DNA of 64,000 nucleotides. Source: Escherichia phage vB_EcoM_Goslar. The stretch lies in sequence record NC_048170.1, one strand, 5' to 3'. Of this stretch, positions 5,270-61,962 are shown piece by piece (within the stretch, counting starts at the first letter, position 1; the number at the start of each line of letters is the position of its first letter). The position numbers and the translations under genes are program-made. The notes beneath the pieces are model-generated. The model was not told the DNA's origin. It ran no database searches and was given only the letters and a program-made list of their open reading frames with translations.

Positions 5270-5739
5270 GTACGAAGGATTTGGTTAACTTCGCTTCGCA
5301 TCACCGATAAACGACAACGAAAATCGAACTTCTCATCATGACCGTAGTCTTCATGCATGAAAACTTCATCCAAAACGAACTCAAGTTGCATGTCGACATC
5401 ACGGCCAGAGATATTCCGTTTGTACAAATACAACTCAATCGTGTCGTAAAGCAACGTATGAATATCATAATTTCCGTTCGGTGAGAAATAAGGTAATCGC
5501 TCATCGAGCATCGAAAACAGATATTCACTGTAGTTTAATAACGGGATGATGTACCGACGCCCTGTCTGTGGTGTGCGAATATGTATCGAAACCTGACTTG
5601 GGCGCGGAATAACCGACGGCTTAGAATCGTCTCTCTGAAATTGCTCTAAAGATCGCAACAAAGGTGGCCGCATTGTAACTCTCCAACGCCCAATTGTAAG
5701 GCCCTTCCAACATGTGTTCCCATACGTGAATAAACTCAC
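5188..5739 (-). CDS. hypothetical protein (start uncertain)
   Basis: 183-aa ORF overlapping neighbours. Confidence 0.3.
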   Translation of the reverse strand: MSLFTYGNTCWKGLTIGRWRVTMRPPLLRSLEQFQRDDSKPSVIPRPSQVSIHIRTPQTGRRYIIPLLNYSEYLFSMLDERLPYFSPNGNYDIHTLLYDTIELYLYKRNISGRDVDMQLEFVLDEVFMHEDYGHDEKFDFRCRLSVMRSEVNQILRTWIPRVEDWWHFNFTLDTSMTLWLVVE

Positions 5740-6250
5740 TACCGAAGACAGGCTCTAGTGCCATAGTGAGATTCGTAAGTTCTGACGCGGCCGCATGGTA
5801 AGCATCAACATGTCTTTCCATTGACGGATCGTCTTCATTGAAAATACGTTCTGTATCGCCAGCGCGCTCAATAAGTTCGGTAATGAGATCTGTCCATGTC
5901 TCGTGACACGTCATCATTTCCTGTTCTCGACTTAGTATGCCGATGTCTGCGTGGACGCTGGACTCGAACCGGTCTAAAAGGACCCGAAGAACGTGCACCT
6001 TGTCGATGTATTTCACCGTTATCCAGGAAAGCGGTTGCCACCGACTCAGCATCCATCCGGTACTCGGGAACCCCAAACTCATATAGTACGGGTTGCACCG
6101 GACCGAAGACGGAGCGACGTTGTTTAAATCGCTCCTTAAGGGCAAGGCCTTGTTTAATATAAACGGGTTCATTGGCGAGCTGTTCCGCTTTTCGTTTTGC
6201 GTGAGCCAATCGAAGTTCTTCCAATTGCCCAAGCCATTCAAATTGTTCAT
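5621..6250 (-). CDS. hypothetical protein (start uncertain)
   Basis: 209-aa ORF; overlaps 5868..6845 by about 380 nt in another frame. Confidence 0.3.
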   Translation of the reverse strand: MNNLNGLGNWKNFDWLTQNEKRNSSPMNPFILNKALPLRSDLNNVAPSSVRCNPYYMSLGFPSTGWMLSRWQPLSWITVKYIDKVHVLRVLLDRFESSVHADIGILSREQEMMTCHETWTDLITELIERAGDTERIFNEDDPSMERHVDAYHAAASELTNLTMALEPVFGSEFIHVWEHMLEGPYNWALESYNAATFVAIFRAISERRF

Positions 6251-9963: not shown

Positions 9964-10259
9964 AACAACCCTTCCCGTTTCATCGCGGCACGCATACTTG
10001 CGTAAAGCGCATTCTTCATTGCACCCGGACGCAACGGATAACAAATCTCATATCGACGTCCTTGTTTTACAGCAATTTTCCTTCCGTTCAGAAACAACGT
10101 GCCGTTATCCAGCAACAACTCACCTTGTAGTACCATGAGTCCTGCTTTAACATGACGTCCTTCTTCTTTAGTTAAGACCTTATAGCCGTGTTTATCCAAT
10201 AACCACAATTCGTAGATACCGTGCGCAGCCTTCGGCATTACTTTCTTCTTCGTCGTCAT
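9960..10259 (-). CDS. hypothetical protein
   Basis: 99-aa ORF. Confidence 0.45.
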   Translation of the reverse strand: MTTKKKVMPKAAHGIYELWLLDKHGYKVLTKEEGRHVKAGLMVLQGELLLDNGTLFLNGRKIAVKQGRRYEICYPLRPGAMKNALYASMRAAMKREGLL

Positions 10260-10271
10260 GGAAGATCCTCC

Positions 10272-12499: not shown

Positions 12500-12754
12500 G
12501 ATAGGAATCCTTAGTATGTTTGATATGTTGTTTAATTGACATATTAAGTTTAAAAGAGGTTATGTTTTACGTAATGTTAATAACGTATTCTTATCTCTAT
12601 TAAGTTATGTTCTATCTAAAGATAGTAAACAGATATAATGCTCCCCACCTCCCCATTCTCCCAAGTAATACTGGCCTACCGGCCCTCTCCTTTTTAAGGG
12701 AGAGAGTAAGCATTCAGTATTGCTCAAATGAATAAGCAAAACAGTATAAACTTA

Positions 12755-12778
12755 CCGTCTCGAGACAACTCGAGACGG
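12755..12778. terminator. perfect 10-bp hairpin ccgtctcgag-acaa-ctcgagacgg
   Basis: inverted repeat in 300-nt intergenic region, followed on minus strand by T-rich tract. Confidence 0.4.
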
Positions 12779-12807
12779 CGTAGTAGTATCTGTTTATCTC
12801 TTTTATG

Positions 12808-27923: not shown

Positions 27924-28026
27924 AGCGCTAACCCCAAAGGATAAAAATAAAACCTTGACATAACCACCACCGTAGCCCTGTATGGGGCTACGGTGGGGTC
28001 ATACAGAGAGACGTGTTAAGTTACAA

Positions 28027-28641: not shown

Positions 28642-29442
28642 TCAACTTTTTTCCAATAATGCCGCAACGTTCCGTGCGAAACGAATTACCTTGTAATTGC
28701 GGGTCTGTTTGATATCTTCTTCCCCATCACTGTCACCTTCAGACGGATCTTCCCACATGAAGTCTTGTTCGTCCGCTTTCTGTAAATAGCGGTATAACTG
28801 CACCATGCTGCGTGCGGTCGGAGAGATAGCGCGAAGCTCATCCAATTCTTCATCAGTCAACAGAACATGCGGTGAACGCAGTGGTTCCATTGTTGTATTA
28901 CACAACAGACGAATCAGCAGATCGACGCACGGAATAACCGAACCTGGTGAGGCGATTTCTGGGTGTAACGTATAACCCCAATATACGGTGTTAAAATACG
29001 TCAAAACAGCAGGTAGTGACGGATGTTCCATCGCACGGCCAATTTGTTGTCTTACGATAGATGCACGATCGTTCAATACATCGAAAGTAATCTGTTGCGG
29101 TTCCATAACCGCAAGTGAAATACCGTACGCGTCAGCCACACCCAGGATTTCATGAAGGGTCGAACGTTCTTCTTCGGTGGATATTGTCCCGATCGCCTTA
29201 CGCCCCGCAAGGTCAATCAGCATCGGTGAAACAGCTTCTTTAACCGCATTAAAAGAAGCCTGGTAAGCGTGTTTATGAATATACAGTGTCCACGCTAATG
29301 CGCGCTCAGCCGCATGAAGCAGATCGACATAAGACAGTTCTTGATGGCATGGGCCATACACACTCACAGCAAGCTTGGTGGCTTTCTCAGAGGCTTGCAT
29401 AATAACATCTGGTGATTTAGGCATATCGCGTTCTTCTTGCAT
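28642..29442 (-). CDS. hypothetical protein
   Basis: 266-aa ORF. Confidence 0.5.
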   Translation of the reverse strand: MQEERDMPKSPDVIMQASEKATKLAVSVYGPCHQELSYVDLLHAAERALAWTLYIHKHAYQASFNAVKEAVSPMLIDLAGRKAIGTISTEEERSTLHEILGVADAYGISLAVMEPQQITFDVLNDRASIVRQQIGRAMEHPSLPAVLTYFNTVYWGYTLHPEIASPGSVIPCVDLLIRLLCNTTMEPLRSPHVLLTDEELDELRAISPTARSMVQLYRYLQKADEQDFMWEDPSEGDSDGEEDIKQTRNYKVIRFARNVAALLEKS

Positions 29443-29531
29443 CTTTTTAAATTCCTACTTAACAATAAAGTTCATATACGGCGTATGTATCCGTAGAATA
29501 ATGGGTTCTGGTAAGATCTTACATCAAAATG

Positions 29532-29543
29532 ACGGCATAAAAA
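29532..29543 (-). promoter_or_regulatory. TTTTTATGCCGT box following hairpin
   Basis: minus strand: acctccttaccc-acat-gggtaaggaggt then ACTTTTTATGCCGTCA, about 90 nt upstream of ATG at 29442. Confidence 0.4.
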
Positions 29544-29725
29544 GTACCTCCTTACCCATGTGGGTAAGGAGGTTCGTCCATCACGACGAAAGGACGTTAT
29601 GTGACGCGGTGTCCATAACGGCCCTGGTAGCAGGCATTAAAGATAACAAAAAGGATGTAAGTTGAGCTAAACCACCTAAATACGGTAACGATTACTTCCG
29701 TACACAATATAACGCAACATCTTTT

Positions 29726-30535
29726 TTACCAATGATTAAAGCTGCCCGCTTTAACGACGTCACAGCGCAGATGGTTACGTAACTGATCCAGGAAGACAAC
29801 CGGACTGTCACCAGACAACATAGCCAGCGCGTGTTGGCCACCGGAACGAACAACAAGCTCATCAACCATTGGTGCTGTAATCGGGAGATCATACGCATCC
29901 ATGATTGCCTTGGCTTCCTGTTCTACGTCTTTCTGGAACCCTTCCATCGTCGGAGAGTCATATTTGGTTGCAAACTCGATCCCAGGTAAGTTAACGTAAT
30001 CGTAAGTCATGACACGGGTCATAACACGACGGCGCTCACGTTGCCAGATCTGAGGATCGGTTAACGCGCGAACCGAAAAACATACGTTCACTAGCGGTGT
30101 TTCAAAATCTTTACGTAATGGATCACCGTACGGTCCGCAAGGAATAACATCCCCCATCACCATCACGACAGGACGACCACGACGATCACGTCCAGCTTCC
30201 TCTAACCAAATCTTAGAAAAGCAATGGCTTACCTTCGTTTCTTCGATTCGTAATGCCCGCTGCAAAAAGCTGGTTGCATCCTGACCGATCTCTGGTTTAG
30301 GGTGACCGTATTCACCTTTCAACGAACGATTGCGTGCGTTTGTTTGCAATAAACTGTTTTCCAGGAACAGCGGTTTCGAACGCTCAAGTTCGTAATATTC
30401 TTCGGTATTGTTAAAACAGTTAAACCCGCCTATAACACAGGTGTAGGCACCGTCAGCATTAGGACGGATAATACCTTTCTTATTCACACCAAGATAACTG
30501 GTGCAAACAAGATTACTAATTGGTGGTTGCATCAT
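29726..30535 (-). CDS. hypothetical protein
   Basis: 269-aa ORF. Confidence 0.5.
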   Translation of the reverse strand: MMQPPISNLVCTSYLGVNKKGIIRPNADGAYTCVIGGFNCFNNTEEYYELERSKPLFLENSLLQTNARNRSLKGEYGHPKPEIGQDATSFLQRALRIEETKVSHCFSKIWLEEAGRDRRGRPVVMVMGDVIPCGPYGDPLRKDFETPLVNVCFSVRALTDPQIWQRERRRVMTRVMTYDYVNLPGIEFATKYDSPTMEGFQKDVEQEAKAIMDAYDLPITAPMVDELVVRSGGQHALAMLSGDSPVVFLDQLRNHLRCDVVKAGSFNHW

Positions 30536-30583
30536 AACCCCTTTATAAGCAACTGAATGAAAAAAGCGTTACATTCCCGCTTT

Positions 30584-30597
30584 TACGTCAAGAAGGT
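30584..30597 (-). promoter_or_regulatory. ACCTTCTTGACGTA box (copy 2)
   Basis: identical 14-mer to 33856-33869, about 49 nt upstream of ATG at 30535. Confidence 0.4.
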
Positions 30598-30614
30598 GAC
30601 GCGTAAGCGTTATA

Positions 30615-31346
30615 TCACCATTCATACGATCCGGCGCACTGATGCCCCAACAGTACCAACGCGTCGTCTTTGGCAGCTAGGTATTTCTCTAACGTTATCC
30701 GTGAAACAGACACATTAGAGAAATCCATCACACCTAAGCGATGATCGTAATGGTTAATTTGCATCCGGTAGTAACCTTTCTTTACCACCAGAAACTCGCC
30801 TTGACGCAACCATAGCGGAACGTTGTCAACCTCCGCATGGATATAAAACACTGGACATTCTGTCGTAACGGAGTTTTCCTTCCCATCGCTATCTGTAATC
30901 TTCCCTTTGGGAACAGCCGCGATAAAACATTCTCCGATACGCTCGGTTTGATACCCGTTTGGATAGCGCGGATCGTGAAATAACCAGTGCTCATCGCTAA
31001 TATCAACATCGGATAATAACGTACGATGTGGACGTAAGGCGATATCAAACGGAACACGATAAATAACGTACCCGCCTAACCAATGGGCTAAGTGACCGCC
31101 AGAAAAATACTGCTTGATTGCGGTACTGTAACCGTATATACAACCCATCAAACTGCTGGATACACAGATCCTTGGAAACGACCCGTCTTCCATACGCAAA
31201 GTACGTTGAGGGATACGTGGCATCATCGTTTTCAGTTCGGTATCGGTGCTGATGTGCAATAAACCGAAAGGAAGCGTTTTACTCGGCACCCACGCACAAC
31301 GTTCCATAATCGCTCTTGGGACAATAGTCTCGATAGACGATAACAT
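30615..31346 (-). CDS. hypothetical protein
   Basis: 243-aa ORF. Confidence 0.5.
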   Translation of the reverse strand: MLSSIETIVPRAIMERCAWVPSKTLPFGLLHISTDTELKTMMPRIPQRTLRMEDGSFPRICVSSSLMGCIYGYSTAIKQYFSGGHLAHWLGGYVIYRVPFDIALRPHRTLLSDVDISDEHWLFHDPRYPNGYQTERIGECFIAAVPKGKITDSDGKENSVTTECPVFYIHAEVDNVPLWLRQGEFLVVKKGYYRMQINHYDHRLGVMDFSNVSVSRITLEKYLAAKDDALVLLGHQCAGSYEW

Positions 31347-31347
31347 A

Positions 31348-32058
31348 TCACCCCCTCAGAATCGCTTCTGTTTCGCTGATCGTATCCGCAGGATAAACCA
31401 AACTACTATCGATTGCGTTATTCACGTAACCACCCATTAAGTTGGTGATGGTGTTTGTGCCGCTATCGATAATGTTTCGTAATCCGATGTCGATGGCTTT
31501 TAAGGTGCTGCGTTCCTCATCCGAAAGCAAACGCCATGCTCGACGACGATCGTTGGGGTCACGTGTGGTGATAGAAGCCAGAACAGAATAGATGCTGCTA
31601 TCCGCATTCAGTTTAACGCCTGCCAATTTCGCTGACGTGTAGAGCAGCTGATATTTTTCTTTCTCAGTGTACCACCATGGCACCTTACCGAGCGTATAGA
31701 TCTCGTTATACATCAGCCATGGGAAAGAGTTTCGCATCACGACATCGGTCGACACCAACACCGTGTCGCCGGGAAGAAACACAAATTCATAAAACGGCTG
31801 GCCATCCATGGTAATTTCACGGATGTCAGAAGGGTCGATATGGAGCTGGGTCAATGCGTGGCTGACACCATACTGACCATCAGGAAGAATAATCGGGCAG
31901 CACGCACAAACCCGGTTCTCACTCCCGATGATAGATAAACCCAATCCCTCGTAACGGACGGGTGTCAGAATCGAACACCCGCCACGAGTAACAACAGATT
32001 TATCTTCTTGTATGTCCCAGTCCGCAAGCACCGCAGCACCGTTGCGGACAAGCGCCAT
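31348..32058 (-). CDS. hypothetical protein
   Basis: 236-aa ORF. Confidence 0.5.
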   Translation of the reverse strand: MALVRNGAAVLADWDIQEDKSVVTRGGCSILTPVRYEGLGLSIIGSENRVCACCPIILPDGQYGVSHALTQLHIDPSDIREITMDGQPFYEFVFLPGDTVLVSTDVVMRNSFPWLMYNEIYTLGKVPWWYTEKEKYQLLYTSAKLAGVKLNADSSIYSVLASITTRDPNDRRRAWRLLSDEERSTLKAIDIGLRNIIDSGTNTITNLMGGYVNNAIDSSLVYPADTISETEAILRG

Positions 32059-33582
32059 TTACACCTCGCTAATCTGGATAACGTAAAGCTGCTGGACCAC
32101 GTAATCGGTGGTCAGATGCATCGTTGCGATGGTTGCTGCTTCGAACACCGTGAGTTCAGGACGTTCACGCATAATCAAATCGATCTCATCGATAAGACGG
32201 TTAACGCCTTGAGCGTCTTCATGATGCATCGTTTTCACGTACAGCGTACGGAAATACTGCTGGAAATTAGCTACGTCGGTATCGGTAAGGGTAGCAACTT
32301 CACCACGCACAATTTCCATGACCTTCTTACGGGTATCTTCATCGAGGTCCACAGTAATCAGATCAGCAAATACACCCTGCAATGCCAGCGCATATGCACG
32401 TAAGCGGTTTGCGGCTTGCTGGCTGGCTTTCATGTTGATGTAGTTACGGTAATGCTGCATGAAGCCTGCGCCGTTAGCCAGCAGCTCATCTTTACTGATG
32501 AGTTCGCGCTCTAACAGGACAGCTGCGGTTAGTGCTTCCGGTGAACCGCCTTCTTGCAGATAACCCATGTAGACATCCGCGTTAACGAAAATCGTCATCG
32601 TTGACGCATCTTCAGCACGTTGAATCTGAGAAGCTGACGGTGCAGAAAGAATCAGTTCACCACGCTCCATACGCAGAATACGATCACGACCGACGCGTGC
32701 CATCCCGTTGATCGCCGCAGCACGAGCTTGTTGCATTTTAGCGCGGTAGTTTTCAAGCATCATGTCGTTGCCGTCCTGGATGTCTTCCAGCAGGTTAACG
32801 GCCCACATATAGCAGAGGAATGCAGGAGTTGCCGCAGCGCGGGAACCGTGGAATGCAACGTTATCGCTATCCGGATATGTAATCAGATAAGCGGTGTTGT
32901 TCGAAGAAGGAGCGGAACCACGGAAGAAATAGTTGTAGATGTCTTCCAGTGCCTGATCGCTCATCCCTTCCGTCGCTTGCTGTACAAAACGATCCAGGTT
33001 TTCATTACCGGTATACAGCAACGTACGCAGCTTGTCACCAGTGATAAACGCAAGCTTTTCGGTTGGGGTGAAATCGTTATTAATCGAAATCAAGCCATTG
33101 AGATCGTAATCGCTAACTAAGGCCTGGTACTCTTCGGAGTTATAAAACTCAGGATAGTAACTCAGACTTACCGTCGGGATCAGTTTCGGTGCCAGGATGA
33201 TCGAATCGATACGTTTTTCCAGTTCCGGGTACAGCGCACGGCATTTCGGCAGGATGGTATTACGCGCCAACTCTTTGGCATACACCACTTTTTCCACCAC
33301 GTCTTGAACTGCGGTCTGTAAAACTTCATCGTGGATATAAACCTCGCGTTCGCTGGCAGGTGCTACAACGCCATCTTCGGTTTCATCGAGTGTTTCAGCA
33401 ACAACCATACGTTCAGCACTAAGTTGCACCAACGCATCCGCGTCTTCCGGTGGCTGGTTCCAATGCATGGTTTCACAAACCGCGGCTAACGGGGTACCTG
33501 GAATCGCAGCGACGATTTGGTTACGTTTGATAAACCCTTCGACAATAGGCTCAACAGCATAAACGGTTTTATTGGTGATCAT
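32059..33582 (-). CDS. hypothetical protein (possible virion protein)
   Basis: 507-aa ORF. Confidence 0.5.
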   Translation of the reverse strand: MITNKTVYAVEPIVEGFIKRNQIVAAIPGTPLAAVCETMHWNQPPEDADALVQLSAERMVVAETLDETEDGVVAPASEREVYIHDEVLQTAVQDVVEKVVYAKELARNTILPKCRALYPELEKRIDSIILAPKLIPTVSLSYYPEFYNSEEYQALVSDYDLNGLISINNDFTPTEKLAFITGDKLRTLLYTGNENLDRFVQQATEGMSDQALEDIYNYFFRGSAPSSNNTAYLITYPDSDNVAFHGSRAAATPAFLCYMWAVNLLEDIQDGNDMMLENYRAKMQQARAAAINGMARVGRDRILRMERGELILSAPSASQIQRAEDASTMTIFVNADVYMGYLQEGGSPEALTAAVLLERELISKDELLANGAGFMQHYRNYINMKASQQAANRLRAYALALQGVFADLITVDLDEDTRKKVMEIVRGEVATLTDTDVANFQQYFRTLYVKTMHHEDAQGVNRLIDEIDLIMRERPELTVFEAATIATMHLTTDYVVQQLYVIQISEV

Positions 33583-33815
33583 TACTGCGCTCCCTCCAAC
33601 GCATTACTACCTACGGGTTCTTTGGTTTCCAGACGGCTGTTTAGGCGCGCAGCAACCGCATCTTCCAATCCCAACGGCATAACCTTTTTGTTCACGTCAG
33701 GATCGGCGGCATCATTACCAACGGTTTGACGTACGACCTCAGCAACCAACGTTACCGCGTTCGTCAGCGCAACAAAGCTCGCTGCCCGAGCCGTGTTAAG
33801 TTGTTCTTGGTTCAT
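33582..33815 (-). CDS. small hypothetical protein
   Basis: 77-aa ORF. Confidence 0.4.
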   Translation of the reverse strand: MNQEQLNTARAASFVALTNAVTLVAEVVRQTVGNDAADPDVNKKVMPLGLEDAVAARLNSRLETKEPVGSNALEGAQ

Positions 33816-33846
33816 TCACTTTTCCTTTTAATGTCAGAGCATCGCA

Positions 33847-33869
33847 TTCTTGACATACGTCAAGAAGGT
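33847..33869 (-). promoter_or_regulatory. ACCTTCTTGACGTA box (copy 1) within palindrome TTCTTGAC-GTAT-GTCAAGAA
   Basis: about 41 nt upstream of ATG at 33815, directly after beta-gene terminator. Confidence 0.45.
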
Positions 33870-33890
33870 ACTGCGTTCAGCGAAATAAAC

Positions 33891-33916
33891 GAGCAGGGGC
33901 ATGAAGCCCCCTGCTC
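33891..33916. terminator. terminator hairpin after RNAP beta-like gene
   Basis: gagcaggggg-c-atgaa-g-ccccctgctc immediately after stop; T-rich on both sides. Confidence 0.55.
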
Positions 33917-36900
33917 TTATTTGGCGTCGTTAAAATAAATATCAACAGCTCGTTCCGTTGCGTAGAGGAGACCAAGATTCACAGTCCCAACCACTTCCGG
34001 TGAACCGATGATACGGTTAGCGATACTGGTGCCACTGAAGATAGCATCAAGGGTGTGCCCGTCTTCGGTTTTGTTCACACCATGACCCACGGAAGAGACA
34101 ACGGATTTCGCTTGTGCTGCGAAGGTACCTTTATCACCCATCCCCGCACCAAGGTCGTAACGCATGAAAATACGGATGGCGATCTGGTTCTCGCCTAACG
34201 GATTACCGTCTATTCTTACGTTACTGTTGTTGATACGCCCCGTTGTTGCTTCGTTGAGTTTCAGTTCCTTAACGCGTTTAGCTCGTGCTTTATCCGCATC
34301 GCCGACGAGCGCTGCCATGGTTTCACTCATATCCTCAATCTGAGCGCGGTACAATACATCGATCTGTACAACTTCACCATGAACGTCAGCACGTGGGTTA
34401 TACTGACTCATACGCCGTAATGCTTCAACGGCTTCCTGACTCTCATCACTCAGATCGGTCGCAATCGGTTCTTCCAGTGTTGCAAGGATCGTTCGTGGTT
34501 CAACATGATCGCCGATTTTCACGAGACCACGAATGTTGAGATGGGCGTCAACGATGAGTGTACGACTCTTAATCGATGGTGTTACGAGACGATCGGCAAG
34601 ATTGTCGAAGATATACGAACTGTCCTCGTGCGTCTCTGGAATATCCAGAATACCGACAAGAGACAGAACACCTGCGCGCCAAACAACCTGACCTGGGTTC
34701 CACCAATCGCGTTTAAAATAAAGACGATGGAAAACCACCACATCCTGATCCTTAACGCGATCCCCGACTTTATAATCGGTAATGAGATCGTGAGGATAAT
34801 ACTTACCTGGTCCTTTCCCGATTATCGTGCCGAGTTGGAAAACCTCTTCTCCTAACTCTGGATCGTCGTATTGTATCGTAAGCGCAGTTTTGGTGACCTT
34901 CTTAACAACACCATCGCCTTGGGCAGCTGCTGCGAAGAGTTTACCAACACGATGCGCGATGACTGTCTCGCCACCCGTACGCCATGGTTGTACATCGTAA
35001 CCTTCAGCAGCAATCATGCGGTTGTGTTGGATTCCGACAAAAACCAGACGTTTTCCATCGTCACGGTCTACAGCCGGAACAGCTAACGCCGACGTACTCA
35101 TTACCGATGAGATACCATCTGTCTTTTCATCGAATGGTCGTGTTTCACCATACACCGACACGATATTAGCATTAGGTGCAAGGTAAGCAGAGATACCCAC
35201 ATCCCCACTATCTTTCGTACCCTCTGACACAATACCAACATCAGACTTGTCGTATTCACGATCGCGTGCGCGTCGAAGCGATGTCTTTGAACGACCTCCG
35301 ATACCGGTCATCGTTGCTTCTTCACCTTGCTTGATATCCAGCATTGGGTTGGTTTCATCAATGACGATAGAAGCACTGTCGTCAAGGATTTGGTTCCAAA
35401 CGCTCACCGGACTGATTGAGATCTTCTGTCGGTTGCCTTGGCTGCTGTTCTCATTCTGACGAATAGCGCCAACCAGGTCCTTATACACCAATTCAGCGAA
35501 CTTATCGTACGTTTTAAAACGTTGGTAGTTCACATCGTTCGTGTTAGGTGCCCAATCATCCAGAAGCAGTTCAACAGCACGCAGTAGCAACATGGCGAAA
35601 TCAGTAGGTTCTCCCATGTTCTGTAATAGCGTACGGCTTACCGGATCAACGAAAAGACGCTCCATGAGTTCAAGTTCGCGTAAATGGCGAACCTTAAGTC
35701 CAGCACCATCGACAACGTTAAAATAGATATCACGATTGTCAAAAGCGCCGCGAGCGTAACCGATGTAGTTACGGTACTCGTTAAACCCACCCAGCAACAA
35801 CGTCGTCATGCGATCGTCTTTACTGAAAATCAAACTTTCATCGTCAAAGCTCACCGCGAATTCATCTGCTGCTAACCCCATACGAGAACCACGAGGTACC
35901 GTACGATAGTTTGCTTTAAGATGTTCTAATAACGGGGTAAGTCCGCCCAGATAACTTAGAACAACGCCAACCGGAATACGTACACCCATGAATTCAAGAT
36001 CGGCGGCTTCGATCGGCATCTTAGCCGCATTGATACCGAAGAAATCAGGGAACGTCCCTACAGGTGTTGGTGTTTGTCCTGACTGACAGATATAGAGCTG
36101 ATTGCGTTCATCGATCGCTAGGAACTCACCCGATGTGTTACGTGCGAACGTCAGGAGTCCTTCGGCTAACTGTTCGTTGAACCGATCTTCCCCAATGAAC
36201 TCCGGCAATGTTTTTATATCGAGACGTATATCCCAATCAGCAAATTGGATTTGGGTATAGTTGCGTGCAAGCACAGCGAAGTAATACGGGACTTTGACAG
36301 CCGGATCAAAGACGTTACCACGTTTTAACGTTGTTAAGGGTGAGGACTTATCGTAATACATCGCCGTAAGTTGACGTGTTAGCCAACGACCGGCGTTATT
36401 AACGACGCGCTCTGAACGTTTAACAAACACCTTACCGTAGGCGGTACTTAATGCAACTTCGGATGATGATACCTTTCTAATAGGTTTATCAACACGTTGT
36501 TTACGCATCCGGTACTTGATGCCGTTAACAACATAAATGCCATCCTTACGAACCTTCGGCAACATCACCGGGAACGTGGTTGGGACACCGCCTACAGGGG
36601 CCAGTTTAATCGTGATGACTTGATAATCCCCCATCACGTCAACAACATCTTCGACTTTATATCCCGTAACAGGGTAACCTGCTTGCTGTACCGCAACAAC
36701 GGCAGCTGCGATGTCCTTTTGCATTACATGCTCAACGTAATGTTTATCCCACACCGCAAGCGTCGATTTACATAGGCTCTTATCGACGATAACATCCGCT
36801 TCCGGCATAACCTTTGCGGGAGCTAATTTTGCGGCTTTTGGTTTAACTTCAACATACTCGGCAAGCGTGAGTCCAGAACCGTCGGGCGCTTCGATTTCAT

Positions 36901-38446: not shown

Positions 38447-38930
38447 CCTTGTCTTCGCCTCAGGTCGCTACGCTGAGACCGCCTGCATGGATACGTACAT
38501 CACAGGCTGCTTGCACTTTCATGCAAGAGGAGACTATATCAAACCGTCAGCTTCACTTTCTCGATCATATCGAGAATGCGGCGCTGAAGTATTCTTCAGC
38601 AGCACCTGTTACGGTAACCTACACTTCGAAGACGCTTGTCCTCTACAGGGTGGTAAATCCCTTAGTCGTTGAACCTGCGTTGTTTCACATTCTTACAACC
38701 AAGAATGCCGTATTGCTACGCAATAACCAGGCTGCTGATTGCCCATTGTCTCGCACCTTAGCACCGCTTACGCGGCTTTTCTTTCAGCCTAAGCCTCTTA
38801 CGGAGGTAGTGCATCTCAACTGTTGTTTCTGCCTTTCGGCACCTCATGGGTCGTTGAGCTTTAGGGGTTCCCAGCAATTCGTAGGTTTTTCAAGCACTCC
38901 CTTTCAGGAATACCGGACCTTATAGAAAAG
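38447..38930 (-). ncRNA. group I intron catalytic core (3' part of intron)
   Basis: minus strand: AATTGCTGGGAA (38879-38868), AATCAGCAGCC (38740-38730), GTTCAACGACTAAG (38674-38661), GATATAGTCTCC (38540-38529) in P-Q-R-S order; no ORF of 60 codons or more on the coding strand. Confidence 0.6.
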
Positions 38931-40403
38931 CTATTTATTCAAGTATCTGAAATCCCACTTATCCTTACGTCTATTATCGCACTTGATGTCAGGATGTCTA
39001 ACACGGTGTTGAATCGTAGTCGCTGGTAATTGACTCACATTCACAGCCGATTTCGCGCCAAGAACAATTGTTTTTGTGTTGTCCGGACGAGTAACTTCTA
39101 CCGCTCGATGATGTTTACGTAACACATCACGCCAATACTCACGCCGTTCCGGTTCCGCGTATTCGAGCATATAACCGTTGGTATCGACCAGACCGTAACT
39201 CTCGTTTAAACGAGAGGTGGCGGCTGGTCTACTAATACCAATCGCTTTAGCCGCGTCAACCACGGTTTTATACGGGGTCTCATTACCGTCTCTATCTACA
39301 ACCACAATAAAATCTGGACGCGAATCGAGCAGCTGCTGTCTTCGTTCAAGGGCTTGTTGATGAAGCACCTTATTAACATGTTCGAACCCGTAACCTTCTG
39401 GACCGTGCCACCCTGGATTGTTATTCGCTCGATAAAGTATCGTCGCAGATTTCACTCCCGTCTGACGTGACGCCTCGTTCGCACTATGGACAACCGTGGT
39501 AGTGCCATCAGGGTGATATATCCGTATCTGGTTCATTATACCAGAACCAACGAAATTACCATCAGCTGATTTAATGTCCGGCCAGGGTTGTGGATCATCT
39601 TTGAATTTAACCACCCAACGGTTGTTAAACAATTTGACTTTCCGAGCATGTTTACCTAATGTCGTGTCTGTAACACCGGCTACAGCAGAGGCTTGCGCGA
39701 TACTAGGATATTCCGTGACCACATCTTCTTCAGTATCCCAAAGGAGAACCGGTTTGTTATCATCACGTAGTCCGGTCTCAACCGCATGTAGAATATTTCT
39801 AAGGCGGGTTGCCCATTCTAGATTGTCTAACGCGTAATTCCACTTATCGCCATCAAGATGGTTAACGTCCATCCTATCGACATCAGCCGGATAATCTTTC
39901 CACGCTAAGAGCAGACAGCGATGAAGCGATCTTCTCTGGGATTTAAATCGGCAATCATGCTGCATACTAACGAAAACATAGCTATCGTCAACACACCAGT
40001 GAGGACACTGACGGCCAGTAATACGGTTGATGATTCTACCTTTCCGGTTGGCCAAATAACGAGTGTGTCCGGGAATGACACGATAACCTGGGTACTTAGC
40101 GATTTCGTAAGCAGGCTCGAACCGATAGGATAAATTATCAACATCCCAGTTAGATTCGTCACCATCAACAAACATCGCTTTGACGTATTTCTGTGTTTCA
40201 ATATCAACCAGGATGTTTTTGTGTGCGATACAAATCAATGCTGGGATATTGAATTCGCGACCGGCTATGATAACCGTGTCGCCATTTCTCGGTACCTCGA
40301 CGTGGGTATCGCGATACCGTAAGTTTCCATAGCCGTCTATTTCAATCCAGCTTAAAAACGGAATGGGTATAAACTCTTTTTCAGATACTCGCCATTTAAA
40401 CAT
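38931..40403 (-). CDS. HNH homing endonuclease (intron-encoded)
   Basis: HNH motif VNHLDGDKWNYALDNLEWATRLRN; C-terminal repeated DNA-binding-like modules (SIAQASAVAGVTDTTLGKHARK, TVVDAAKAIGISRPAATSRL). Confidence 0.8.
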   Translation of the reverse strand: MFKWRVSEKEFIPIPFLSWIEIDGYGNLRYRDTHVEVPRNGDTVIIAGREFNIPALICIAHKNILVDIETQKYVKAMFVDGDESNWDVDNLSYRFEPAYEIAKYPGYRVIPGHTRYLANRKGRIINRITGRQCPHWCVDDSYVFVSMQHDCRFKSQRRSLHRCLLLAWKDYPADVDRMDVNHLDGDKWNYALDNLEWATRLRNILHAVETGLRDDNKPVLLWDTEEDVVTEYPSIAQASAVAGVTDTTLGKHARKVKLFNNRWVVKFKDDPQPWPDIKSADGNFVGSGIMNQIRIYHPDGTTTVVHSANEASRQTGVKSATILYRANNNPGWHGPEGYGFEHVNKVLHQQALERRQQLLDSRPDFIVVVDRDGNETPYKTVVDAAKAIGISRPAATSRLNESYGLVDTNGYMLEYAEPERREYWRDVLRKHHRAVEVTRPDNTKTIVLGAKSAVNVSQLPATTIQHRVRHPDIKCDNRRKDKWDFRYLNK

Positions 40404-61318: not shown

Positions 61319-61356
61319 TAATCATTGTCCGTATGATAGCCCAAAGTTGTACGGTA

Positions 61357-61908
61357 TTACCGATTACCGTCGGTTGACGTTGGTTGATCGCGATCGACTT
61401 TCATTGACCGCAGTTTTCCGCCGTTAATTACACATTGATTGCGCTGTTTGGCGGAGGTCAGACTATTACAGACGTAATAGGTATCGATAAAACGTTCAAC
61501 GCGTTCTTGAAACTCCCTCTCGTCAACTTTCTCTTTTTCAAAAGTTCGTAACGCCCGATCAACCTCACCCTGGAGAATCCGGTTCTGTTCAACCATACTG
61601 TCGATTAAACGGCCTCGTACTTCGTTCGATGTGTAAAGTTGACGAATCAGTTCTCGGTTGGTGTCTCGCGCATAACGCAATGTTGCATTTTCCTGACGTA
61701 AACTACTCACGTCAGCCATCAAGGTAATGATTTTTTCGCCAGCGAATAACGTCACGATACCCAATACGATGAAAAAGCCCGTAATCAAGAATATCGAGGA
61801 CTGTCGAGCTCCATCTCGACGATAGCGTGTGGGCGGTCGCTTACTTCGCCGAAACAACTCGCGAAGAAAAGGGAAAAGCCAGGGCAACGCCTTGAGTGTA
61901 GTAAACAT
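61357..61908 (-). CDS. membrane protein with N-terminal TM helix and coiled coil (spanin-like topology)
   Basis: start MFTTLKAL with RBS AAGGA; hydrophobic SSIFLITGFFIVLGIVTLFAG then heptad-like charged region. Confidence 0.35.
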   Translation of the reverse strand: MFTTLKALPWLFPFLRELFRRSKRPPTRYRRDGARQSSIFLITGFFIVLGIVTLFAGEKIITLMADVSSLRQENATLRYARDTNRELIRQLYTSNEVRGRLIDSMVEQNRILQGEVDRALRTFEKEKVDEREFQERVERFIDTYYVCNSLTSAKQRNQCVINGGKLRSMKVDRDQPTSTDGNR

Positions 61909-61962
61909 GCGTGTGTCCTTGATAGTATGAAATTTCCAATACAACTTAACCGAGGACGTCGA

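Follow-up and report, generated by a model that had tools for sequence, protein, structure and literature searches.

The window, a 64,000-nt stretch of the genome of Escherichia phage vB_EcoM_Goslar (record NC_048170.1), contains two exact copies of a 14-mer, ACCTTCTTGACGTA, and each copy resides in a short intergenic cassette, the subject of this report. The phage is a phiKZ-like, nucleus-forming (Chimalliviridae) jumbo phage of ~236-241 kb. It is recognized as such because it encodes a virion RNA polymerase (vRNAP) β-like subunit, a Peptidase_S80 protease, chimallin, tubulin and a divergent DNA polymerase; the last three lie at the window's left end or just past it. Both copies of the 14-mer are on the minus strand. 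Copy 1 (33869-33856) has on its 5′ side the vRNAP-β-like gene, an open reading frame (ORF) of 1448 aa (phrog_3148). The first gene on its 3′ side is a 77-aa ORF (33582-33815, minus strand), present in the ORF list and called identically in public contigs. ORFs of 507 aa, 236 aa (a virion structural protein) and 243 aa follow, as indicated by PHROG hits and public gene calls. Copy 2 (30597-30584) comes next, and 3′ of it is the gene for the prohead protease (29726-30535, minus strand), a Peptidase_S80 protein like phiKZ gp175 (PF20034, 1.3e-78; PHROG head maturation protease). The 3′ end of copy 1 is 41 nt from the ATG of the 77-aa ORF at 33815, and that of copy 2 is 49 nt from the first ATG of the protease gene at 30535. 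Public gene calls place the protease start at the second ATG, 30532, 52 nt from copy 2. An earlier, sequence-only reading had reported an identical 14-mer upstream of two genes, with spacings of 41 and 49 nt to these start codons, and it was accurate in both respects.

An exact 14-mer repeat is by itself unremarkable, as the window contains ~25 distinct dispersed direct repeats of at least 14 nt. The ACCTTCTTGACGTA pair is the sole one among these with both copies intergenic; ~0.12 such pairs are expected. The expectation is based on an intergenic fraction of 7%, taken from a crude ORF map. This map leaves long "intergenic" stretches at 61319-61926, 5529-5867 and 10045-10271 that are probably unannotated or alternatively started genes, and the 7% is therefore an over-estimate.

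More decisive is the comparison with relatives. The comparison set consists of ~24 same-species genomes (95-98% identical to the window), a sister genome, L134 (JACXXQ010000003.1; 85-89%), and an outgroup (72-75% protease identity). Alignment to L134 shows two gaps. The first, cassette 1, spans 41 nt (33829-33869, minus strand), and its first base is the start of the 14-mer. The second, cassette 2, spans 46-47 nt (30566-30611, minus strand), contains copy 2 and is also missing from the outgroup. These are the only indels of more than 8 nt between L134 and the window clade in a 10.7-kb alignment, and the cassettes are present or absent as units. The outgroup is syntenic, with 3 nt from the vRNAP-β stop to the start of the 77-aa gene and 23 nt from the 243-aa gene to the protease gene. 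Both cassettes are found in every sampled member of the clade, i.e., in ~24 genomes, and neither is found in L134 or the outgroup. In an outgroup-rooted neighbour-joining tree L134 is basal to the cassette-bearing clade. Parsimony puts the gain of both cassettes on one branch, the stem of a single clade. Because the sister and the outgroup carry the same genes in the same order without them, the cassettes read as recent lineage-specific insertions and not as ancestral promoters or operators of these genes.

Thus, the shared 14-mer element is real and non-random. Recurrence of a 14-mer by chance, for which the ~25 other repeats might be cited, would have had to produce the only pair with both copies intergenic and also place both copies on the only two large L134 indels, a joint probability estimated at ~1e-5 or less. 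We regard its likelihood as negligible, and the reading is effectively refuted by the L134 alignment. An exact 14-mer common to two independent ~45-nt insertions likewise has an estimated probability of roughly 4e-6, at any rate ≤1e-5, so the cassettes have either a shared origin or a selected sequence. The junctions of the two differ. Cassette 2 is bordered on both sides by the direct repeat TAACGC, which runs on as TT, whereas in the sequence the junctions of cassette 1 show only a "TA" microhomology. What the two cassettes do share is a pairing of CCTTC with GAATG, which is in register between them.

Copy 1 is part of a palindrome, TTCTTGAC-GTAT-GTCAAGAA (33847-33866, minus strand). Its 8-nt arms (33847-33854 and 33859-33866) are 4 nt apart and 100% complementary, just as the earlier description of a perfect palindrome with a GTAT centre had it. 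As RNA, the segment folds into the 8-bp stem plus an outer 4-bp CGCA/UGCG helix (33872-33875 with 33843-33846), at -14 kcal/mol. Among the ~24 genomes all 16 stem positions are invariant, and the loop occurs as GTAC (the majority allele, giving a perfect 20-bp palindrome), GTAT, GCAT or GCAC. Since the loop varies freely, the TATG of the window is a minority allele and not a conserved one. The 14-mer of copy 1 varies at positions 3 (C>A) and 13 (T/C). The former change, in L161, lengthens the stem to 10 bp and the palindrome to 24 bp; the arms reach 10-12 bp in some strains.

A terminator scan places a canonical vRNAP-β terminator, GAGCAGGGGGC..GCCCCTGCTC then GTTTATTTCG, at 33881-33916 (minus strand), 5′ of cassette 1. 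It agrees with the phiKZ motif (PMC10914365) and is kept in L134. Cassette 1 is 11 nt past the tail of this terminator and ~18 nt ahead of the ribosome-binding site of the 77-aa gene. The likeliest role of cassette 1 is that of a structured leader, or of an inter-cistronic element, that would affect RNA stability, processing or pausing.

Copy 2 is in a different setting. In phiKZ-type phages, many intergenic hairpin terminators have C/U-rich 5′ arms and G/A-rich 3′ arms (PMC10914365). Putzeys et al. (2024, PMC10914365) give the phiKZ terminator motif as a CCYCCCC..GGGRRGG hairpin with TTATKYYGT after it. Cassette 2 puts a stem-loop right before a T-run that is already present in L134 (TGTTTTCATTT). 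In the predicted fold, termed here stem-loop T (30560-30602, minus strand), the 14-mer is the 5′ arm: GCGU.ACCUUCUU...GGGAAUGU.ACGC then U6. In alleles with GAAGG the minimum-energy fold is GCGU.RCCUUCUU...GGGAAGGU.ACGC then U5-8, at -13.9 to -18.6 kcal/mol, the lowest value being that of L001, where stem-loop T is the minimum-energy fold. The hallmark of an intrinsic terminator, a stable stem-loop followed by a U-tract, is thus found at copy 2 only, with 12-15 bp, -12.3 to -18.6 kcal/mol and U5-8.

Stem-loop T has a competitor. Hairpin A, CGCUU-AC-GCGUCA[CCUUCU]UGACGU-AA-AAGCG (30578-30609, minus strand), is upstream of and mutually exclusive with it. The allele patterns bear on both folds. 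Helix 1 of stem-loop T is 94% paired over 7 distinct alleles, one of which carries a G-C to A-U double change. Hairpin A is 98.7% paired across alleles, with 5 pairs that vary on one side yet stay paired. The substitutions at copy 2 keep pairing, as in the G-C to A-U change of L131, the wobbles of L135 and a U-G to U-A change, and it is only in gene-sense RNA that the U-G wobbles form pairs. Within the 14-mer of copy 2, position 1 is A or G, one T is lost in three genomes and position 11 is changed from C to G in one. The 14-mer changes found in natural strains, at both copies, are tolerated by the folds or improve them. Copy 2 thus resembles an intrinsic terminator that is leaky, or an attenuator, in the leader of the protease gene, and its predicted strength would depend on the allele.

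Further copies were sought by walking along the contig IMGVR_UViG_3300011560_000001 from 64,665 to 176,998, i.e., 112 kb or 47% of the genome. No further copy of the 13-mer at ≤1 mismatch was found there, and coding sequence in particular gave 0 matches, so that the motif does not recur at similar frequency inside genes. The motif is not a recurring signal, with just two copies in the part of the genome covered, at least 47%. The 20-mer palindrome is absent from all other IMG/VR contigs. In the window, 12 inexact matches to the 14-mer were found, all with 3 mismatches and with no shared context; palindrome partner aside, these fall in coding sequence or in 61319-61926, a probable unannotated gene. 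A blastn-short comparison of the two whole intergenic regions returned nothing besides the 14-mer, and a hairpin-pattern search returned no additional family member. The sub-motifs TGACGT, CTTGAC and CCTTCT show no meaningful enrichment in intergenic DNA. Rfam 15 has no match in 30450-34000 at an E-value ≤5, and a search of other phages for the source of the inserted DNA gave chance-level matches only. Two candidates were dropped. TTGACGTAA occurs 5′ of the protease gene in L006, a relative with 40% protein identity, and is a probable coincidence, since it comes without an accompanying hairpin or wider similarity. Anti-Shine-Dalgarno mimicry (copy 2 UCACCUUCUU; 16S rRNA 3′ end UCACCUCCUU) was set aside because such a match is a general property of the pyrimidine-rich terminator arms of these phages.

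To account for the anatomy, presence and absence, phylogenetic polarity, folding and allele patterns observed here, we infer an origin by copying, terminator activity and some role of cassette 1. The explanation we favour, with a probability of about 0.5, is that the cassettes are two paralogous stem-loops, identical by descent and acting at the RNA level. Copy 2 would attenuate read-through into the protease gene, and copy 1 would serve as a structured leader or inter-cistronic element. On this model, cassettes of ~41 and 46 nt were inserted at two junctions of one late virion-gene cluster. The 14-nt identity would stem from common descent, whether one cassette served as the template of the other or the two derive from a single source, probably via templated insertion or template switching. 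At copy 1, a later fold-back would have created the palindrome, and base-pairing would then have kept the sequences similar. The cassettes would act in the mRNA. Cassette 2, sited at the junction of the 243-aa and prohead protease genes, would have placed a hairpin, its 5′ arm rich in pyrimidines and its 3′ arm in purines, directly before the existing T-run, generating a leaky terminator or attenuator. Its strength would be set by competition with the upstream hairpin and thus be allele-dependent. Cassette 1 would form a stable hairpin lacking a U-tract, past the vRNAP-β terminator and ahead of the 77-aa gene's ribosome-binding site.

Several results weigh against this explanation. In the window's own allele (GAATG), hairpin A is the minimum-energy fold, at -14.0 kcal/mol versus -12.3 for stem-loop T. 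A simple ungapped terminator scan does not list copy 2, because its stem is interrupted, and its tail, TTTTTTCATTCAGT, differs from the canonical TTATKYYGT. With 7 alleles only, shuffle controls for covariation are not significant, and every substitution at copy 2 is a transition, a kind of change that by chance alone will often leave a wobble pair intact. The allele pattern is compatible with pairing, not proof of it. The hairpin of copy 1 has no U-tract, its tail being TGCGATGC, and its perfect 20-24-bp palindrome would equally fit a dimer operator. Finally, the similarity between the cassettes 3′ of the 14-mer is not significant, being equalled in 835 of 2000 shuffles, so that homology is not proven for the cassettes as wholes.

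The palindrome is what led the sequence-only reading to see a dimeric protein-binding site. That idea is conceivable for copy 1, which has the dyad, although the comparative data do not favour it, and does not suit copy 2, which offers a half-site only, within a terminator-like stem-loop. Extended to both copies, it would have a dimeric phage-encoded protein bind DNA at a full site in cassette 1 and a half-site in cassette 2, co-regulating the 77-aa operon and the protease inside the phage nucleus. This we consider unlikely. The dyad of copy 1 is perfect, with 8-bp arms in a palindrome of 20 bp in most strains and 24 bp in L161, and its variation is confined to the central bases, as in many operators. 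Both sites were gained together on one branch and are absent in L134, and the 13-mer is unsubstituted in the first 7 alleles of copy 2 despite variable flanks, with an estimated p of ~0.03. However, later strains do change the 14-mer of copy 2, by C>G at position 11 and, in 3 genomes, by the loss of a T. The expected partner half-site is matched at copy 2 in only 3 of 10 positions, and the 3′-arm differences use G-U wobbles, which are relevant in RNA only. Moreover, two sites in 47% of the genome are few, and no candidate binding protein was identified.

A promoter would be another way to read an element 5′ of two genes. The late promoter of phiKZ is TATG at the transcription start, with initiation at the G and all four bases required (PMC12809450, PMC7598289), and middle and late promoters have not been predicted by bioinformatics (PMC7598289). 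The 14-mer would then be an upstream element for the phage's non-virion (or virion) RNA polymerase, with a start in the loop (GTA|YG or GTA|AA), and transcripts begun at that point, being without the 5′ arm, would not form the hairpin. The window's copy 1 does contain TATG, it directly follows a strong terminator, where a restart would make sense, and TATGTCAA recurs at 33857, 27962 and 12543 (minus strand), 39-44 nt before three start codons. Yet a phiKZ-type late promoter with invariant TATG is found at neither copy among the strains: copy 1 reads TACG, CATG or CACG in the others, and copy 2 has TAAA at this position. At the sites with a conserved hairpin and TATGCCG, unlike at copy 1, TATG is invariant even in L134. 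To express these same essential genes, the sister and the outgroup need no such element, and no other gene in the 112 kb has it. We therefore hold a phage-polymerase promoter to be rather improbable. As for the host polymerase, a sigma-70 scan gave no site overlapping either copy, and no hexamer located 16-18 nt past TTGACG agrees with TATAAT at more than 3 of its 6 positions, in agreement with the earlier view that this is no sigma-70 promoter despite the TTGACG.

The cassettes might also have no function at all. On this account, they are templated or slippage insertions, the identity of which is a mutational footprint tolerated because the sites are intergenic. The TAACGC and TT repeated on both sides of cassette 2, the "TA" microhomology and fold-back palindrome of cassette 1 and the restriction to two copies all fit such by-products, as do the ~4-5 changes in the 14-mers across strains, which is not far below a rough neutral expectation. 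Against this, both cassettes are fixed in all ~24 sampled genomes of a very widespread clade, and pairing in the stems is maintained or strengthened even as the loops drift. It is also unlikely that transcription would be unaffected by a hairpin sited just before a T-run. A purely neutral origin and persistence thus seems to us a doubtful account of the pair. The RNA-level explanation, with copy 2 as attenuator and copy 1 as structured leader, remains the one we prefer.

A bolder version keeps the joint gain on one branch and supposes that the 14-mer is the recognition sequence of a trans-acting phage factor acquired along with both sites. We deem it a long shot. If it were true, the factor could be a protein binding RNA or DNA and governing read-through by the non-canonical jumbo-phage RNA polymerase, in a nut-like antitermination or attenuation at the protease. 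Alternatively, it could be the machinery by which a miniature regulatory hairpin element of the Chimalliviridae copies itself. The ChmC paper, based on enhanced crosslinking and immunoprecipitation (eCLIP), reports no binding motif. Probably, the cassettes represent ordinary tuning of gene expression; they are not evidence for a new promoter class or regulator.

Their interest lies elsewhere. Middle and late transcription control in nucleus-forming jumbo phages is poorly understood. Here, closely related and abundant gut phages differ by two short hairpin cassettes in a core virion-gene cluster, a clean natural experiment and a simple handle on termination and read-through by the phage polymerases. 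The case also shows how regulatory hairpins may arise and be copied within a jumbo phage genome.

Several known systems resemble the cassettes in part. Like the phiKZ-type terminators (PMC10914365), copy 2 is an intergenic stem-loop of a member of the Chimalliviridae, in which the 5′ arm is rich in pyrimidines and the 3′ arm in purines, and a T-run comes next. Unlike them, its stem is AU-richer and interrupted and its tail is TTTTTTCATTCAGT, and copy 1 lacks a T-run. The cassettes further differ from those terminators in being lineage-specific insertions with a common 14-mer. Repetitive extragenic palindromes (REPs) and palindromes like miniature inverted-repeat transposable elements (MITEs) can attenuate transcription or stabilise mRNA. 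They share with the cassettes the form of ~40-nt imperfect palindromes between operon genes that are present in some lineages only, and the direct repeats at the borders of cassette 2. In contrast to REPs and MITEs, there are two copies here in the 112 kb walked, no terminal inverted repeats and a phage setting, and no REP-associated tyrosine transposase (RAYT) or other transposase was identified.

The promoter-early stem-loops (PeSLs) of T4-type phages carry a recognisable early promoter and flank variable genes. They too are short repeated intergenic stem-loop modules of large lytic phages, thought to spread by recombination, but the cassettes have no evident promoter, and their flanking genes are conserved core virion genes. 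The nutL and nutR sites of lambda, with boxB, and the put sites of HK022 are antitermination RNA sites, and in nut the boxB loop is a conserved recognition element. The likeness here is that of a short hairpin-containing sequence with two copies per phage genome, near terminators and acting, as proposed, at the RNA level. However, the loop of copy 1 varies freely, and the 14-mer is found in different structural contexts at the two copies. We know of no N-like factor for the jumbo-phage polymerases. Finally, the stoperators and start-associated sequences of mycobacteriophages are short asymmetric or palindromic repeats that, as here, are identical between sites, lie 5′ of genes and have one orientation. 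A single genome has tens of those, and their repressor is known, whereas we find two copies and no known binder.

The window as a whole shares the phiKZ grammar of transcription signals. A hairpin plus TTTTATGCCGT is found at 29539, 23795, 7277, 3229, 52219 (-) and 63972 (+). This module contains the TATG late-promoter core and matches the phiKZ terminator motif. Both 14-mer cassettes fall outside the canonical terminator motif, with tails TTTTTTCATTCAGT (copy 2) and TGCGATGC (copy 1). Of the 7 copies of TATGCCGT, 5 are intergenic by the ORF map, and a sixth (52219) is probably 5′ of its gene's true start. At 29539, the one such site examined in the strain alignment, TATG is invariant, including in L134, and the hairpin shows compensatory changes. 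At 27962, TATGTCAA is directly 3′ of a terminator hairpin; its TATG is conserved and its TCAAG varies between strains. A 308-nt AT-rich intergenic region, 12500-12807, contains repeated motifs of the TTAATATG/CATATTAA type, an 8-mer with 4 copies in the window, all 4 intergenic. The region is a candidate early (vRNAP) promoter cluster.

The phage is very widespread. Proteins identical to its protease are indexed in 751 blocks of public assemblies, and for the 236-aa protein the number is 1300. These include metagenomes, numerous near-complete contigs (236-241 kb) and a few NCBI genomes (GCA_020395325.1, a bacterial isolate assembly, GCA_044979225.1, GCA_039902845.1). A megablast search with 29000-35000 gave no match to the annotated phages, complete E. 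coli genomes and plasmids searched, and the best annotated phage protease is <40% identical.

A group I catalytic intron (RF00028; Rfam, 67.7 bits, E 5.8e-15) is at 38510-38938 (minus strand), between a 490-aa ORF (38931-40403) and the 1448-aa vRNAP-β-like ORF. In the outgroup, the 547-aa and 1447-aa counterparts are directly adjacent at this position. Some strains (L132, L001, L002) have an insertion of ~460-500 nt at ~35054, inside the vRNAP-β-like gene, which the window lacks. The insertion has stops in all three sense-strand frames and splits the gene; a separate 366-aa C-terminal ORF of the split gene is called in L162, L165, L167, L168, L176 and L178-L180. It has no Rfam match at the curated gathering threshold and may be another intron-like element. 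One strain (L147, 16855-17835) has an extra 326-aa gene of the homing-endonuclease type (HNH_3/NUMOD1) shortly 3′ of chimallin, a gene the other strains lack.

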